This document shows, in pieces, positions 20,237 to 56,503 of a stretch of 64,000 nucleotides of DNA. Within the stretch, counting starts at the first letter, position 1, and each line of letters opens with the position of its first letter. The notes under the pieces are model-generated. The model worked only from the letters and a program-made list of their open reading frames with translations. It did not search any database and was not told the origin of the DNA. Origin of the DNA: a virus; the IMG/VR virus record IMGVR_UViG_3300042453_004434, positions 32,001-96,000 of that record; one strand, written 5' to 3'. Made by a program: the position numbers and the translations under genes.

Positions 20237-20702
20237 TTTTTAATTAAAAATATATTTTTTTAAAAAAGTGTTTTATATGAAACATTAATCTGTATAACGT
20301 TTCTTATGTGACATCTAAAATATAATCAGGAATTTGACCCGCAAACCAAAAAAAATCTTCTTGAAAAGAATAATGAAATGTAGCATTTAATGCAGGATTA
20401 AATGCAACAAGAACATCGCGATTCTTAATTCGTTTAAGTTTACCGCGAAATTCTATATGTGGATATTTTTTTCTTATCTCTTCTGGAACGTGAATGTTCA
20501 ATTTTATTGAATTTCTTCCAGTTGCTTGATTACATTATATATTGCATCTTCTAGTTCAATAACACGCTTGTCAAGCATTTTTAATCTATCCGCCGCTTCA
20601 GCTATTGCAGCATTTGCAACACCATCTTCTGATTGTATTTCTTTAGATAGTATTTGTAATGCTTTAATTAATGTAGCTGTAGATGATTTCATAAAAGAAA
20701 AA

Positions 20703-20777
20703 TGGCTCCTCCCCTTGGACTCGAACCAAGAACAACGAAATTAACAGTTTCGGACTCCACCATTGAGCTAGAGAGGA
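20703..20777 (-). tRNA. tRNA-Asn(GTT)
   Basis: cloverleaf, CGAAA-CTGTTAA-TTTCG anticodon arm, TTCGA T-loop, CCA. Confidence 0.95.
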
Positions 20778-20785
20778 ATTAAAAT

Positions 20786-20868
20786 TGGCGCACCAAGCAG
20801 GGCTCGAACCTGCATTTTCAGCTCCATTTACGATTACAGAGGTAGAAGCTCTGCTCGGCTATTGGTGC
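20786..20868 (-). tRNA. atypical tRNA-Arg(TCT)-like RNA without D-arm, with long variable region
   Basis: GCACCAA/TTGGTGC acceptor + GCCA, GCAGG-TTCGAGC-CCTGC T-arm, CAGAG-CTTCTAC-CTCTG anticodon arm; only 8 nt between acceptor and anticodon stems. Confidence 0.75.
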
Positions 20869-20873
20869 ATTAA

Positions 20874-20951
20874 TCTTGCTAAAAGTGCCTTTCTCGTTTA
20901 TTTAAAAACTTACAGGACAGAGGCATGAGCCTCTTTTTCCTCCTAGCAAGA
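20874..20951 (-). ncRNA. candidate structured RNA (multi-branch)
   Basis: 11-bp closing stem with two G-U pairs on minus strand; inner AGAGGC-UCAU-GCCUCU hairpin. Confidence 0.5.
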
Positions 20952-20955
20952 AATA

Positions 20956-21047
20956 TTAGGTTCATACGGTGTATTGGTTATTTTCCGATCCGCAGTGTCC
21001 ATCCCCTAAACCAATAGGTGACACCTTTCATTAGCGGTTGAACCTAA
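20956..21047 (-). ncRNA. candidate three-way-junction RNA with kissing loops
   Basis: UUAGGUUCA/UGAACCUAA, CCGC/GCGG, GUGUC/GACAC, CCUA/UAGG; loop UUGGUU complementary to loop AACCAA. Confidence 0.6.
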
Positions 21048-21070
21048 AAATTATTATAAAAGAACTAAAT

Positions 21071-21125
21071 GCCCATTTTTTGCTCAGTGTAAAGCGACTC
21101 AAATCAAGATCGCTTGGGCGCACTG
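21071..21125 (-). ncRNA. candidate pseudoknot RNA
   Basis: CAGUG/CACUG enclosing AGCGA/UCGCU; GCCCA pairs with 3' UGGGC across A-rich linker. Confidence 0.5.
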
Positions 21126-21133
21126 TATGTTTT

Positions 21134-21221
21134 TTGCAGATCACGTCGCTGAGTTGTCTGGTGCCCAGAATTTCCAGCGCCCCAAACTACGGTCAATTAC
21201 CGACTCCCGTCATTGCTGCAA
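21134..21221 (-). ncRNA. unnamed RNA motif, short copy
   Basis: UGCAGCAAUGA...UGAUCUGCA termini shared with 21225..21415, compensatory changes in three helices. Confidence 0.7.
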
Positions 21222-21224
21222 AAA

Positions 21225-21415
21225 TTGCAGATCAGGTTGTTCAGTGCTTAATGTGTTCCCAATCAGATATCGACATACTTTAGCTCGGATGATTCGAAAA
21301 GCATCATCTACTTTACGCTAATTAAATGTCCTGATTTCTACCAGATTCTTTCCGAGAGGCTTTTCACTGGCTACCTTAAGCTACGTCTTAGTGACGACTG
21401 CCCTCATTGCTGCAA
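21225..21415 (-). ncRNA. unnamed RNA motif, long copy with ~100-nt structured insert
   Basis: same core as 21134..21221; insert folds into nested hairpins. Confidence 0.7.
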
Positions 21416-21420
21416 AATTT

Positions 21421-21540
21421 ATTATGATTTAGGTAGCTACTCCCAAATCATAATTTTCCTCAAATACCGTCCGTAATAGAAATCCAAATCTATTATCATG
21501 TGTTCGCTTTTGGAAGCCGGATGTATTTTTTGGAAAAATT
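21421..21540 (-). ncRNA. candidate three-way junction plus long hairpin directly after tRNA-Leu
   Basis: UUUUCC/GGAAAA, AAAUAC/GUAUUU, UCCG/CGGA enclosing GCUU/AAGC and UAAUAGA/UCUAUUA; then AUUAUGAUUUGGG/CCUAAAUCAUAAU. Confidence 0.45.
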
Positions 21541-21625
21541 GGTGCCGCTAGACAGGGTCGAACTGTCACGCCATTTCTGGCAGCAGATTTTAAGTCTGCT
21601 GTGTCTGCCATTCCACCATAGCGGC
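21540..21625 (-). tRNA. tRNA-Leu(TAA)
   Basis: type II cloverleaf, GCAGA-CTTAAAA-TCTGC, CCA. Confidence 0.95.
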
Positions 21626-21643
21626 ATTTAAAAGAACGTACAT

Positions 21644-21672
21644 ATCCTACTATTGGATACGCCCTTTGTCAA
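21644..21672 (-). promoter_or_regulatory. sigma70-like promoter for tRNA-Leu and downstream RNAs
   Basis: TTGACA-17-TAGGAT followed by GTTCTTT. Confidence 0.7.
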
Positions 21673-21681
21673 GGAAAAATT

Positions 21682-21756
21682 TGGTGCATCTGGCGCGACT
21701 CTCACGCGCAACCTAACCCTTATAAAGAGTTTGCTCTGAAATTGAGCTACAGATGC
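21682..21756 (-). tRNA. tRNA-Ile(TAT)
   Basis: AACTC-TTTATAA-GGGTT anticodon arm, CCA; T-loop TGAGAGT. Confidence 0.85.
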
Positions 21757-21773
21757 ATTTAAAGAACACGAAC

Positions 21774-21802
21774 AATCTACTCTGAAAACTTGCTCTTGTC
21801 AA
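21774..21802 (-). promoter_or_regulatory. sigma70-like promoter
   Basis: TTGACA-17-TAGATT. Confidence 0.7.
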
Positions 21803-21839
21803 CATCAAAAGATTTGAATTTCACATTTCGAATCTTATC

Positions 21840-22532
21840 ATGTATATAATATATATTATGTTATTAATTTCTATAGATCAAATTTCTAATTATAAATCAA
21901 TGGATCTTTTAGATGTTAAATGCGATTCTTGTCAAAAAATTTTTAAAAGAAGACAAGCTCAAATAAAAAGCGATCTTAAATTAAAGAATCAAACAAAACA
22001 TTATTGTTCGAATAAATGCCAAGGTATTAAACAAATTACAAAAATTAAAGTTGAATGCAAGCAATGCGGAAGTGAATTTTTCAAAGTAGCAGGAGAACAT
22101 CGAAGGCATCCAAATTCTTTTTGTAACAGATCATGCGCCGCAACATACAACAACACTCATAAAACTCATGGTTGTAGAAGATCTAAATTTGAAATTTATT
22201 TATCTGAAATTTTACCAAATCGTTATCCTGATTTAGAATTTCATTTTAATAGAATTGATACTATTAATTCTGAGTTAGATATTTATATTCCTGATTTGAA
22301 ATTAGCTTTTGAATTAAATGGTATTTTTCATTATGAACCTATTTATGGTAAAGAAAAACTTTTAAGAACACAAAATAATGATCAAAGAAAATTTCAAGCT
22401 TGTTTAGAACGGAATATAGAATTATGCATTATTGATGTATCTAGTATTTCTTATTTCAAACCAGACAGAGTTCAAAAATTTGTAGATATAATAACAAATA
22501 TTATTGATTCAAAATGTAAAAGAACAGAATAA
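21840..22532 (+). CDS. free-standing putative homing endonuclease (Cys-rich repeats + PD-(D/E)xK/Vsr-like domain)
   Basis: CxxC...CS..C repeats; S..E, ELDIYIP.LKLAFELNG..HY; start may be 21858. Confidence 0.8.
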   Translation: MYIIYIMLLISIDQISNYKSMDLLDVKCDSCQKIFKRRQAQIKSDLKLKNQTKHYCSNKCQGIKQITKIKVECKQCGSEFFKVAGEHRRHPNSFCNRSCAATYNNTHKTHGCRRSKFEIYLSEILPNRYPDLEFHFNRIDTINSELDIYIPDLKLAFELNGIFHYEPIYGKEKLLRTQNNDQRKFQACLERNIELCIIDVSSISYFKPDRVQKFVDIITNIIDSKCKRTE

Positions 22533-22534
22533 AA

Positions 22535-22806
22535 TGGGGGGCCTTGAAGGATTTGAACCTTCACTCAACGAATTCGGATTTGTGAATATTTCTATTCTCT
22601 CTGGACTTTACCACTTCCATAGTATTTCTACTTTAGGAACGCGCCGTCAAGTCTCTACACCTTCTGTATTTCTACAGCTTGGCTCGGTATTGCCTACTAT
22701 TTGTAGTTTAGGTTTCACCGACTTTGACGCGATTCAATATAGAATTTCTTCTATAAGGCACTTTTATTAAATGAGTTCGCTGCTTTAACCATTAAGCTAA
22801 AGGCCC
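22535..22806 (-). tRNA. tRNA-Ile2-type (CAT) interrupted by a group I intron
   Basis: exons GGGCCTTTAGCTTAATGGTTAAAGCAGCGAACTCAT | AATTCGTTGAGTGAAGGTTCAAATCCTTCAAGGCCCCCCA join to a full cloverleaf. Confidence 0.9.
22575..22770 (-). mobile_element. group I self-splicing intron (IC3, Azoarcus-like), 196 nt, no ORF
   Basis: exon ends in U, IGS GUG, AAAGUCGGUGAAACC, CCGAGCCAAG, GAAGGUGUAGAGACU.GACGG, AGUCCA, terminal G. Confidence 0.9.
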
Positions 22807-22833
22807 GTAATTATAAAAAGAACAAAAATAAAT

Positions 22834-22907
22834 TGGTAGGACCGGAGGGTAACGCTCCCTCTTCTATGGTTTAAAAGACCATTGCATCACTTTAATGCTT
22901 CGATCCC
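22834..22907 (-). tRNA. tRNA-Lys(TTT)
   Basis: ATGGT-CTTTTAA-ACCAT, CCA; atypical T-loop AGCGTTA. Confidence 0.85.
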
Positions 22908-22925
22908 ATTTTAAAGAACTTCAAT

Positions 22926-22954
22926 ACTCTATCTTAGAATATTGCCTCTGTCAA
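22926..22954 (-). promoter_or_regulatory. sigma70-like promoter
   Basis: TTGACA-17-TAGAGT. Confidence 0.7.
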
Positions 22955-22966
22955 GAGAGAAAAATT

Positions 22967-23043
22967 TGGGAGCAGGTGCTGGATTTGCACCAGCGATCTT
23001 CACGTTATGAGCGTGACGAGATAGACTACTTCTCCAACCTGCT
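22967..23043 (-). tRNA. tRNA-Met(CAT), initiator-like body
   Basis: TGGAG..CTCG TCACG-CTCATAA-CGTGA AGATC, CCA. Confidence 0.85.
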
Positions 23044-23066
23044 ACTAACTCACTTTCAACGCACTA

Positions 23067-23095
23067 ACTCTACATCAAACACACACACTTGTCAA
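23067..23095 (-). promoter_or_regulatory. sigma70-like promoter
   Basis: TTGACA-17-TAGAGT. Confidence 0.7.
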
Positions 23096-23109
23096 GCGAT
23101 TTTTTGAAG

Positions 23110-23184
23110 TGGAGCCTCCTTCCGGGCTTGCGCCGAACTCTGAGGTTTACAAAACCCCTGCATCGCTGCCTATGCTTAGGAGGC
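23110..23184 (-). tRNA. tRNA-Thr(TGT)
   Basis: GGGGT-TTTGTAA-ACCTC, CCA; T-loop CGCAAGC. Confidence 0.85.
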
Positions 23185-23190
23185 CACTAA

Positions 23191-23490
23191 CTAAAAATTC
23201 TCACCCTTACCAACAATATTAATACTATTTATATCTACTTTATAGTATTTTGCAACTCTTTTCTTAAAATTATTACACACTTTTTTAACATGATGCGGAA
23301 TTACCGCATTGGTTTTCGTGGCGAAACGACTAACTGCAATATTAAAACCACGTAGCTTATCAAAGCGATCACCAGCTTTTACATTGGTATACGACCAACT
23401 AATAATTGGATAATCATTTGTTGATTTATCAGCAATCAAAACACCACGCAGCTTATTCTTTTTTGGATCGTGAATATATTGAACAATCAT
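23191..23490 (-). CDS. hypothetical phage protein
   Basis: WS......DRFDK..G..IA..R pattern. Confidence 0.7.
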   Translation of the reverse strand: MIVQYIHDPKKNKLRGVLIADKSTNDYPIISWSYTNVKAGDRFDKLRGFNIAVSRFATKTNAVIPHHVKKVCNNFKKRVAKYYKVDINSINIVGKGENF

Positions 23491-29506: not shown

Positions 29507-29884
29507 TTATGCATATTGTTTATAACTTTCTAATAAGCTAATAATATTTTTTGCACCAATTGGATTTAAAGAATGCACAGTATAATCTGGTACTTTTAAA
29601 TTATTTTTTATGCAATATTCAATCAACCATTTCGCACAATCATAGCCAGTTTTTTCTGTATATTTGGAATAGTCTGTTTCACTATTGCAAAGATTTTTAT
29701 AATGCTCAAAACTTAAATCGTGATCAAATGAAATAAAATTTGGTAAATAACCTTTCAACTCTATAAGTACTTTAAAATTATTATAATCACGAACTACAGT
29801 CCAATGCAAATCAGGTATGGAAGTCCATTTCACGTCTTTTGGAAAACGCTCGTCATCTAAAAAAATATAATAAGGTTTACTCAT
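29507..29884 (-). CDS. cyclic-phosphate-processing receiver-like (cREC) protein
   Basis: FLDDER, ISFDHDL, TGYDCA.WL, HSLNP.G. Confidence 0.75.
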   Translation of the reverse strand: MSKPYYIFLDDERFPKDVKWTSIPDLHWTVVRDYNNFKVLIELKGYLPNFISFDHDLSFEHYKNLCNSETDYSKYTEKTGYDCAKWLIEYCIKNNLKVPDYTVHSLNPIGAKNIISLLESYKQYA

Positions 29885-31931: not shown

Positions 31932-32573
31932 TCAAATCCAACTCAAAGCTTCGCTAATAACAGGAAACTCTTTAATAAATATATTTTTAATACCAACTGC
32001 AATTTCTCTATGTTCTTTTTGAGTATCTTCTTTTGCTCTCAACTCAATATAATGAATCCAGCTACGAAGTGTACCTGTCATGTACATGGTGGTTTGTGTG
32101 GTTAATGGTAAAACCATTCTAGCGCATTCTTTGGCAATGCCAGCTTCAATTAATGCGTCATACGCTTTCAAGCTGTGATCAAGCGCATTATTTACTAATT
32201 CAAGTTTTTCTTGCGGTAAATTAACTTCAGTATCGCCAACTTGTCTATTAGTTTTGCCCTGCATTCGCCATTGAATATCTTCTAGTTTTGTAGCTACACT
32301 ATATCTTTGACTGAATTCTTGAAATGCGAAAGATCTATGTCTTAAAATTTGTGCAGCAATAGCTCTGCTTGTAACAATTTCTATTGTAACACTAGCCATT
32401 TCGAATGGACTCCAATGTTGATGTTTGATTAAATATTTAAGAAGTCGCGGCGCAGTTTCTGTATTCATCTGATTAGATGGATTACTTACTCTTGCACAAT
32501 ACGAAACAATATCTTCAGCAGTATTTAAATCTTCAATTTTGGGTGAAGTTACGGCTACTAATTTAACGTTCAT
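31932..32573 (-). CDS. thyX: flavin-dependent thymidylate synthase
   Basis: HWSPFE, QILRHRS..FQEFSQRY, ECAR..LP. Confidence 0.95.
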   Translation of the reverse strand: MNVKLVAVTSPKIEDLNTAEDIVSYCARVSNPSNQMNTETAPRLLKYLIKHQHWSPFEMASVTIEIVTSRAIAAQILRHRSFAFQEFSQRYSVATKLEDIQWRMQGKTNRQVGDTEVNLPQEKLELVNNALDHSLKAYDALIEAGIAKECARMVLPLTTQTTMYMTGTLRSWIHYIELRAKEDTQKEHREIAVGIKNIFIKEFPVISEALSWI

Positions 32574-55354: not shown

Positions 55355-56503
55355 TTATTGACTGGCTTTTAGAAGAGCTTCTAGCTTACCATTTGGAGTT
55401 GATATGCCACCAATAGCTGTAAAAATGGATAATCCATCTTTAACGCCTTTATAAATACCTTGATGAACTGTGCTATTAGTTTTTAATGTTCTGTTTAGTT
55501 GATTGAAAGCATTATCTAAATATTCTTGAGGGATACTATCTAAAGTTTTTTCATCACAAATTGCTACAGCAGCAGCGACACTGCCGGTAGCTAAATCTAG
55601 CTCACCACAAAGAACGTTACGCTTTAGATTTTCTCTGACGGCCTTAGAAATTTCAGCTTCATTTTTAAATTCAGTAATATTAGCTGCACCAAACACCATA
55701 ATGCCTGAGTCTAAAACAGTACGAAAATCATTTGTATCAAATGTGCTATATTGACTATTCTTGGTTATGATATTATTAAATAGATGAAATAAAGCACAAA
55801 TATTAGCATTAGCTACTTGCCAGAACTTGTTTACAGAGAGTTTTGGATATAAAGCATTAATCTTTTCATTGTCTAGAATAATTAATGGAGAAACGATTTT
55901 GTCTTCAACTAATTTACAAGCTTCTTTTAATGTAGCATAAGCATTTTCGCTTACCTTCTTGCCTTCAGATAATTTAGGCAGCGCCAATATCAATCCAACG
56001 TATGGAGATGTAGCTTTAACTGTTGTTTGATATTCTTTAAGAGTTTTAACTAATTCTGAACAAACGCCTGCTCCAGTGCCGCCACCAGCTCCAACGACAG
56101 CAAATACACGATCAATATCAGTTCCAACTGACTGTTTAATAAAATCAACTACATCTTCTTTATGATTAATAAATGCTTGTTTAGCAAACTCTCTATTTTT
56201 GCCAGCTCCTTGCTGCTCGCCAAACTTCAGCTTATTTTTAACGTTGATAGTTGCTAAATCTTGATCAGCAGTATTAATGACGCCAACTCTAGCATAACCA
56301 ATTTGAGAAAAGGTTTCTGCTAGTTTACTTCCTCCTTGACCAGCTCCAATAAAACCAAACTTAAAACCTACAGCGTCTTTATCTTTTAATTCGACTTGTG
56401 CTGGTTCTACTGGATCTGGAATGTCAGGCATAGCAAAATCGAACGTATCGTTTTTGCCATCATTGTTTGCGTTGACATTGTAAAGAGGATTATATTCGCT
56501 CAT
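55355..56503 (-). CDS. tubulin/FtsZ-superfamily GTPase
   Basis: G.GQGG, INT, GAG, GGGTG.G signature, DNE, FD..D. Confidence 0.9.
   Translation of the reverse strand: MSEYNPLYNVNANNDGKNDTFDFAMPDIPDPVEPAQVELKDKDAVGFKFGFIGAGQGGSKLAETFSQIGYARVGVINTADQDLATINVKNKLKFGEQQGAGKNREFAKQAFINHKEDVVDFIKQSVGTDIDRVFAVVGAGGGTGAGVCSELVKTLKEYQTTVKATSPYVGLILALPKLSEGKKVSENAYATLKEACKLVEDKIVSPLIILDNEKINALYPKLSVNKFWQVANANICALFHLFNNIITKNSQYSTFDTNDFRTVLDSGIMVFGAANITEFKNEAEISKAVRENLKRNVLCGELDLATGSVAAAVAICDEKTLDSIPQEYLDNAFNQLNRTLKTNSTVHQGIYKGVKDGLSIFTAIGGISTPNGKLEALLKASQ

Follow-up and report, generated by a model that had tools for sequence, protein, structure and literature searches.

Phage tRNA arrays have mostly been read as a source of codon supply and as a counter-defence against tRNA-cutting immunity. 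Such arrays can also hold RNAs that are not tRNAs, as in phage T4, where rnaD and rnaC (species 2 and 1) are annotated as small stable RNAs. They lie 6 nucleotides (nt) apart, starting 1 nt past tRNA-Arg, in a cluster that also contains a homing endonuclease gene. To our knowledge, no function has been assigned to the two species, some fifty years on. Here, we describe a three-way junction RNA (3WJ RNA) that is present as two tandem copies in the IMG/VR virus record IMGVR_UViG_3300042453_004434. The window analyzed is a 64-kb stretch of this record (positions 32,001–96,000), and all coordinates below are those of the window. The 3WJ RNAs resemble rnaD and rnaC in being tandem, non-tRNA RNAs within a phage tRNA cluster and on the tRNA strand. 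Their fold is kept by compensatory change, their spacing is tRNA-like, the base is invariant, the apex tolerates inserts, and a second conserved element follows. They form a well-supported, real new RNA family of a known general kind. Our preferred reading, to which we give roughly even chances, is that the 3WJ RNA is a stable non-coding RNA cut from a tRNA precursor, a positional analogue of rnaC and rnaD, and that the uncatalogued family represents extra "members" of the array.

The likeness to T4 is one of position. The fold of rnaC includes a tRNA-type T arm (GGUUCGAAUCC) that is missing from the 3WJ RNA. The 3WJ family, for its part, is marked by a basal helix that never varies, by apical inserts that can be exchanged, and by its coupling to a pseudoknot-shaped element. 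Homology to rnaC or rnaD was rejected, as R1, a covariance model built from relatives of the window copies, gave no match in the T4 region (L111) at E values up to 1, and the folds differ. The Ro60-bound Y RNAs and YrlA are a further point of comparison. Like them, the 3WJ RNA has a conserved, bulged stem formed by its 5' and 3' ends and a variable, modular distal part. Unlike them, it is without a tRNA-like distal module. Rfam includes models of both Y RNA and YrlA, and neither matched at E values up to 10; the TROVE domain was found in none of the two related phage records searched. A host-encoded Ro could nevertheless be the partner. Some phages encode Ro together with a tRNA-like partner RNA, according to the excerpted account of PMC7824862. 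A survey of IMG/VR has listed 8,495 candidate structured RNAs, including orphan phage motifs supported by covariation, some of them tRNA-like (PMC10690425, abstract-level description). At that level of description, the 3WJ RNA comes from the same data source and is the same kind of object. No paper naming the motif was found in the literature searched, and the candidates of that survey, as far as its abstract describes them, could include it.

The long copy occupies 21225–21415 (191 nt) and the short copy, its tandem paralogue, 21134–21221 (88 nt), both on the minus strand and with a spacer of 3 nt between them. The first-pass annotation, made from the sequence of the window, had described two tandem paralogous RNAs with identical ends. 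This was confirmed: the 5' word UUGCAGCAAUGA and the 3' word UGAUCUGCAA are common to both copies, and each occurs exactly twice in the window at 0 mismatches, at these copies only. The shared three-way-junction plan that it proposed was borne out by RNAfold, which gave one architecture for both copies. It consists of a terminal stem P1 (GCAG/CUGC), a CA bulge, a helix P2, an asymmetric internal loop, and a short P3, beyond which a three-way junction gives rise to the small P4 hairpin and, across a UA linker, to the long P5 arm. In the short copy (minus strand), P1 pairs 21221–21216 with 21139–21134 (6 base pairs (bp), then the CA bulge), and P2 pairs 21213–21208 with 21145–21140 (6 positions with a central G.G mismatch). 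A lone pair (21207:21148) is followed by P3 (21206–21203 with 21154–21151), the P4 hairpin (21202–21190), the UA linker, and the P5 arm (21187–21156). The long copy shares these basal helices and this junction, its P5 arm being interrupted by a large inserted domain. R1 matched the window at these two places only, with 94.3 bits (E 2.7e-26) for the short copy and 27.9 bits for the long copy, where the match is split by the insert. A gathering-score scan of the whole window with Rfam 15 returned tRNAs only and no family at either copy, and a permissive scan of 20600–23200 (E up to 10) returned nothing overlapping 20869–21542 on either strand. The motif was thus rightly taken to be unnamed.

Relatives were gathered by exact-word pattern scans of IMG/VR, GTDB genome contigs, and JGI metagenomes. 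About 25 loci with a 3WJ RNA were found in IMG/VR and at least 119 stretches in the JGI metagenomes. Two of the eight GTDB matches were genuine, both on short, phage-like contigs of metagenome-assembled genomes (MAGs), and the other six were chance matches. The family comprises at least 145 complete instances, or at least 143 once a duplicate had been dropped before counting (L112, the same contig as L089), with at least 68 distinct sequences; fractions over 143 given below are among the instances listed. Lengths fall at 84–92 nt (54 distinct sequences), 119 nt (one), and 184–189 nt (12 distinct), in addition to a second tandem pair in L139. Tandem long and short pairs occur in two lineages, at least 10 loci are long-only, and the remaining loci are short-only. 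A related complete phage genome of 174.5 kb has a single copy, and a near-identical record of 85.6 kb has a tandem pair. Several sets of matches were discarded: most of the 107 stretches from one IMG/VR word scan, which were coding sequence without the motif core; the chance match L108; and 18 pattern matches without the 3' end, 15 of them chance matches and three cut by contig ends. The chance matches were high-GC coding DNA without the 3' word.

Nearly all relatives come from freshwater phage contigs, and the family is widespread in lake metagenomes. It is phage-specific in the sense that it was not found in the bacterial genomes searched: the family of one MAG yielded a match in one of 151 genomes and the order of the other in one of seven, in both cases the previously identified phage-like contig itself. 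A search for relatives via the neighboring clamp-loader gene turned up only a near-identical contig. At least 0.6 of the sampled words were contained in 14 DNA sequencing runs from lake, freshwater, drinking-water, and wastewater metagenomes, a figure that is not evidence of habitat.

Covariation provides the main support for the fold. Pairs were counted over 54 distinct short forms, 33 pairs, and 1780 pair cells, with positions numbered by alignment column. Standard pairs fill 96.5% of the cells, against 29–36% when the partners are slid, and 12 of the 33 pairs show changes in both partners, values that none of 500 column shuffles attained. The motif does have covarying homologues. The covarying pairs are 15:92 (GC 48, CG 6), 18:85 (CG 48, GC 6), 24:34, seven pairs in P5, and 17:88. 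The compensatory differences that had been listed between the two window copies (C-G versus G-C in the second helix, GAGU/ACUC versus CAGU/ACUG, and CGGU..ACCG versus CGUC..GACG) are real and recur in relatives. The helix given as AUGA[C]G/C[G]UGAU kept its compensatory pair and lost its fully paired status, as its center is an invariant G.G mismatch. Pair 17:88 (GC 28 and AU 23 of 54) was newly seen inside the internal loop, where it joins the middle base of the 3' loop A-R-N-G-A to the single 5' loop base. The loop is thus not all unpaired, and the "1 x 5 internal loop" becomes a lone pair with a 2-nt purine bulge on either side (A-R and G-A), both in the 3' strand. The unpaired bases of the three-way junction number 0, 2, and 1–2. 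Another junction pairing put forward by RNAalifold (20-22:33-35 and 36-37:77-78) was rejected because it is broken in a divergent lineage, whereas the P3/P4 pairing covaries.

G-U pairs that suit only the tRNA strand are abundant (among them 4:101 UG 20, 45:74 GU 28, 47:72 GU 33, 52:68 UG 41, and 54:66 GU 27) and thus identify it as the transcribed strand, in agreement with the minus-strand transcription first suggested. P1, the CA bulge, the A-U, U-A, G.G, and A-U positions of P2, and the UA of the junction never vary among the 54 short forms. When P1 was left free in the scan, the same 23 loci were recovered, all with GCAG/CUGC. The metagenome scan did not require the 3' word, yet the word is present in every member uncut by a contig end, bar one: the long copy of L139 reads CUGU, which retains a G.U pair.

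The AUGA...UGA ends had also been likened to box C/D or kink-turn (K-turn) termini, and a box C/D-like or other K-turn ribonucleoprotein (RNP) scaffold was considered for this helix. The 5' GA and the 3' GA of the majority sequence could make tandem sheared pairs after a 3-nt bulge. In that register, however, 77.2% of cells pair and none covary, with 16:92 broken in 6 of 54 sequences and 17:91 in 25 of 54. In the Watson–Crick register, 14:93, 15:92, and 16:91 are paired in 54 of 54, 15:92 covaries, and position 17 covaries with 88. The sole C/D small nucleolar RNA match in the 2.6-kb region lies elsewhere, at an E value of 9. The K-turn register was rejected on these counts, and we regard a scaffold of this type as the least probable of the explanations considered, with a negligible chance of being right.

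The place of the motif in the tRNA array, where it resembles an extra array member, was missed in the first-pass annotation. Upstream of the two copies in the window, all on the minus strand, are tRNA-Met (22967–23043), a further tRNA (22837–22907), tRNA-Ile (21682–21756), and tRNA-Leu(UAA) (21540–21625), the usual upstream neighbor of the motif, from which a further conserved element of about 120 nt separates the long copy. Downstream are an 80-nt tRNA-like gene (20789–20868) and tRNA-Asn (20703–20777). The 80-nt gene scores 34.2 bits with the Rfam tRNA model (gathering score 29) and receives no ARAGORN call. In relatives, its slot holds tRNA-Arg(UCU), and a conserved stretch with a CAU-containing loop is also seen there; the gene may be a non-canonical tRNA. 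Throughout the family loci, 708 of 708 tRNAs are on the strand of the motif. The closest upstream tRNA is tRNA-Leu(UAA) in 91 of 143 listed instances, always on the same strand, and the closest downstream tRNA is tRNA-Arg(UCU) in 78 of 143. The motif start (GCAG) lies exactly 5 nt past the encoded CCA end of the tRNA in 52 of 143, and at other loci the nearest tRNA is 22–300 nt away. Across 435 pairs drawn from 30 distinct Leu–motif–Arg triples, mean pairwise identity was 0.864 for the motif, a figure pushed upward by 19 pattern-fixed positions, 0.714 for tRNA-Leu, and 0.795 for tRNA-Arg.

Spacing also bears on transcription. In 12 instances, only 71–76 nt separate the motif from the tRNA that follows, which equals the length of a second conserved element, termed element D, plus at most 21 nt. 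These gaps leave no room for a separate promoter or terminator; in these instances, element D must be co-transcribed with both of its neighbors and cannot be a terminator. Co-transcription of the 3WJ RNA with tRNA-Leu is often necessary as well. Four promoter-like sites of the form TTGACA-17-TAGNNT, which are consensus matches, occur on the minus strand of the window, each about 20 nt upstream of a tRNA: 23095–23067 (tRNA-Met), 22954–22926 (the tRNA at 22907), 21802–21774 (tRNA-Ile), and 21672–21644 (tRNA-Leu). Their placement suggests per-tRNA promoters in this array. Relatives with gaps of 124–126 nt have a similar TTGACA site before tRNA-Arg. In the window, no site of this form was found directly before either 3WJ copy, and no terminator-like hairpin with a U run was found on the minus strand of 20870–21540.

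This context gives some standing to a cis-acting processing or stability cassette, in which the 3WJ RNA and element D would punctuate the precursor, guiding cuts by RNase P, E, or III or shielding the tRNAs from exonucleases, with no life as free RNA. The 5-nt spacing behind tRNA-Leu is what such a cassette would predict, as are the distance of about 11 nt from element D to tRNA-Arg where the gaps are shortest, the A/U-rich linkers, and the lack of a promoter-like site before the copies, though four precede tRNAs. Punctuation, however, needs no invariant, irregular helix of 30 nt that is more conserved than the tRNAs, nor three payload classes (one a structured domain of about 118 nt), nor tandem duplication in two lineages, and some loci lie 22–300 nt from the nearest tRNA. 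We consider a cassette of this kind unlikely overall, while taking it as a serious competitor.

Element D lies 10 nt past the short copy (21071–21125, minus strand, 55 nt) and was found from the gaps downstream of the motif; its near-constant coupling to the 3WJ RNA had been missed in the first-pass annotation. It has the layout CAGUGCGCCCAAG...CACUG...UGGGY and a fixed length of 55 nt. Of the 143 listed instances, 131 contain the word CAGTGCGCCCAAG, with element D starting 7–14 nt past the last 3WJ copy. Among the remaining cases, seven differ from the word by one base, three are truncated at contig ends, the contig of L221 (a long copy) ends before element D, and L234 is a locus without it. 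In a scan directed at element D, 27 IMG/VR loci were recovered, 24 of which were family loci already found; of the additional three, L249 carries a 3WJ RNA at its border, the upstream sequence of L250 is too short to judge, and L251 has element D without a 3WJ RNA.

The last of these loci involves a third conserved, structured element, element U, located in the window between tRNA-Leu and the long copy (21418–21520, minus strand). It has the layout CCGGCUUCCAA...UUACGGACGG...GAGGAAAA together with a 12-bp hairpin, and covariation between the window and L251, L092, and L109 is seen in two of its hairpins. In L251, element U is directly followed by element D, with no 3WJ RNA between them.

Standard pairing fills 97.4% of cells over 47 distinct sequences of element D. 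Its inner hairpin, nested in CAGUG/CACUG, covaries (21:38 UA 23, CG 18, AU 2, GC 2, UG 2; 25:33 CG 23, AU 14), and the stems CAGUG/CACUG and GCCCA/UGGGY are invariant bar 14:62 (GC 31, GU 14, AU 1). GCCCA can pair with the downstream UGGGC, leaving a first loop of 1 nt and an A-rich third loop of 9 nt, with four invariant A's. By its geometry, which is not proof, element D would fit an H-type pseudoknot. The apex of P5 showed no co-variation with the loop of element D, the mean duplex energy being -4.84 against -4.89 ± 0.19 when shuffled, with 304 of 500 shuffles at least as low.

A catalytic role is suggested by comparison with theta ribozymes, which are hepatitis delta virus (HDV)-like and adjoin phage tRNAs (PMC10879173, in excerpt). 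The precursor would then be trimmed by a self-cleaving ribozyme, either the 3WJ RNA or, more probably, element D. In element D, the strands run 1-2-hairpin-1'-linker-2', as in a nested pseudoknot. Like theta ribozymes, it is a small element of this shape in a phage tRNA array, a theta-like position as far as the excerpted source describes it. It differs in lying 7–14 nt past a non-tRNA RNA rather than abutting a tRNA 3' end, and in occurring in freshwater, not gut, phages. The part of PMC10879173 that defines the HDV-like and theta class places a catalytic C at the first J4/2 position and a G at the cleavage site. Measured against this partial definition, element D has no linker column with a conserved C, and 14 of the 47 distinct sequences are without any linker C; its first stem has 5 bp and begins with C, not G, in 47 of 47. 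Because there is no conserved catalytic C, element D is not an HDV-like or theta ribozyme on the published definition. As no Rfam ribozyme family matched in the region at E values up to 10, and the junction is unlike a hammerhead core, self-cleavage by either RNA is in our view very unlikely.

A riboswitch-like sensor was also considered, in which the 3WJ RNA would act as the aptamer and element D as the expression platform, tuning read-through to the tRNA that follows. Many aptamers are built as a three-way junction with covarying stems at the periphery, and the pseudoknot-shaped element D follows directly. The conservation is nevertheless found in the closing helix and not in the junction, which would be the reverse of known aptamers, and neither a terminator-like hairpin with a U run (minus strand, 20870–21540) nor a downstream mRNA nor an Rfam match was seen. 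The chance that the motif is a sensor is accordingly put lower still than that of a ribozyme.

The P5 arm carries the variable part of the molecule. The first-pass annotation had proposed a constant base with a variable apical payload, and this held among the relatives, where at least three payload classes occur: a hairpin of about 20 nt, an insert of about 50 nt (L173), and a domain of about 118 nt. Other apical hairpins are present in L238, L172, and L129. In the long copy of the window, the payload domain (21255–21372, minus strand) consists of a hairpin P5a (GCCAG...CUGGU) and a long hairpin P5b. The consensus fold of 13 distinct long forms (alignment A4) keeps P1–P4 and the base of P5, and 9 of its 52 predicted pairs have double changes. 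The loop of P5a is invariant (UGAAAAGCCUCUCGGAAAGGAU), and the long, covarying P5b is capped by GCUUUUCGA. GAAAAGC in the P5a loop (21365–21359) is fully complementary over 7 nt to GCUUUUC in the P5b loop (21302–21296), and both are unchanged in 12 of the 13 distinct long forms, which suggests a loop–loop contact between P5a and P5b. Since both 7-mers are invariant, this putative contact is deduced from complementarity, without covariation. The payload word was found nowhere outside the 3WJ scaffold, as all three of its IMG/VR matches were inside long forms.

A stable RNA released from a tRNA precursor would be made as follows. The polycistronic precursor would contain tRNA-Leu, one or two 3WJ RNAs, element D, and tRNA-Arg. 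The 5' side of the 3WJ RNA may be cut by host RNase P, an enzyme that reportedly also acts on phage RNAs other than tRNAs (PMC11143913), or set by 3' maturation of the upstream tRNA, and the 3' side by an RNase E-type cut in the A-rich linker of 7–14 nt. The released RNA would accumulate as a discrete species of about 90 or about 190 nt and act in trans. Its invariant, irregular helix, with the CA bulge, the G.G mismatch, and two 2-nt purine bulges around a covarying pair, is a putative docking site for a protein, and P5 would serve as the slot that optionally takes up an accessory domain.

Several observations weigh against a stable, released RNA. Folding energies were unremarkable compared with shuffled sequences (z -1.88 for the short copy and -0.27 for the long copy), so that the support for the fold is covariation rather than thermodynamics. 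The motif is without an encoded CCA, and the adjoining tRNAs encode one. Six metatranscriptome runs contain 0.16–0.19 of the sampled words, which bears neither way on expression. As all relatives were found by the exact words of the motif itself, the sampled family is narrow and made up of close relatives, and its conservation is partly ascertained and inflated; recent horizontal spread could also cause the invariance. A purely cis role, as in the processing cassette above, would likewise count against it. The search for a co-occurring protein in two related phage records, which had been recommended, gave a divided answer: TROVE, RtcB, and RNA_ligase (PF09414, Rnl2-type) were found in neither and thus offer no partner protein, and a cREC_REC domain protein (cyclic-phosphate processing receiver) was found in both, 7–8 kb from the 3WJ RNA and with no demonstrated link to it. 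In the window, this protein of 125 amino acids is encoded at 29507–29884 on the minus strand (E 1e-19). We treat it as a lead, not a link. The cREC domain is predicted to process cyclic-phosphate RNA ends, in the excerpted account of PMC7824862.

The cREC protein bears on two further explanations. In the first, the 3WJ RNA would be a decoy or mimic of the tRNA system, whose P1 and P2 stack imitates an acceptor/T-arm minihelix and diverts a host defense nuclease, modification enzyme, or repair enzyme. RNase P has been reported to process phage non-tRNA RNAs and hairpin model substrates composed of an acceptor stem, T stem, and T loop (PMC11143913, as excerpted). P1 (6 bp) and P2 (6 positions) may stack coaxially into about 12 pairs, a length that would resemble that of those model substrates. 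The RNA sits among phage tRNAs typical of A/T-rich codon supply and counter-defense, and a cREC protein, with the domain role outlined in PMC7824862, is kept in the lineage. There is, however, no cloverleaf, T-loop, anticodon-like conserved 7-nt loop, or CCA, and the cREC gene is distant. A tRNA or tRNA-like identity was itself rejected, as ARAGORN returned no tRNA or tmRNA at the locus, the Rfam tRNA model called neither copy, and the junction is three-way, not four-way. We consider a decoy improbable. To a phage RNP subunit we assign a similarly low probability. In this case, the invariant, bulged helix would bind a dedicated protein, P5 would select the target, and element D would be a second subunit or cap, giving a Y-RNA-like scaffold in host conflicts over tRNA or RNA damage, with the cREC protein as a candidate partner.

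The 3WJ family offers a cleaner handle on the non-tRNA RNAs of phage arrays, as it exceeds the adjoining tRNAs in conservation and combines a binding-site-like helix, an insert slot, and a near-constant companion in element D. Should it act as a scaffold or decoy, an RNA would join the players in the conflict between phage and host over the translation apparatus. If it provides only processing punctuation, it would show how tRNA maturation enzymes handle non-tRNA modules.

The carriers are freshwater phages of one lineage, with large genomes (about 175 kb) of low GC content. The window itself is phage DNA of about 30% GC and encodes a DnaE-type polymerase, a clamp loader, a ClpB-like ATPase, ThyX, a dUTPase, several HNH homing endonucleases, and a TubZ/PhuZ-like protein of the tubulin/FtsZ family (55355–56503, minus strand). 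A UvdE-like endonuclease, a GMP-reductase/IMPDH-like enzyme, and a citrate-synthase-like fragment are also present. Among known phages, no megablast match was obtained, the blastn matches were confined to tRNAs and one other element, and tblastn with the DnaE-like polymerase reached at most about 33% identity; there is thus no close cultured relative.

Elsewhere in the array region, a stretch at 22620–22760 (minus strand) folds strongly (z -3.1) and gave no group I intron match in Rfam. It shares 77–83% identity with DNA of a 735-kb uncultured phage, a contig of a deep-sea phage, and Pelagibacter phage HTVC120P; in the last of these, the counterpart occupies the gap between two coding sequences that are both annotated as "capsid protein". 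The stretch adjoins an HNH endonuclease gene (21840–22532, plus strand) and looks like part of a small intron or other mobile structured RNA.

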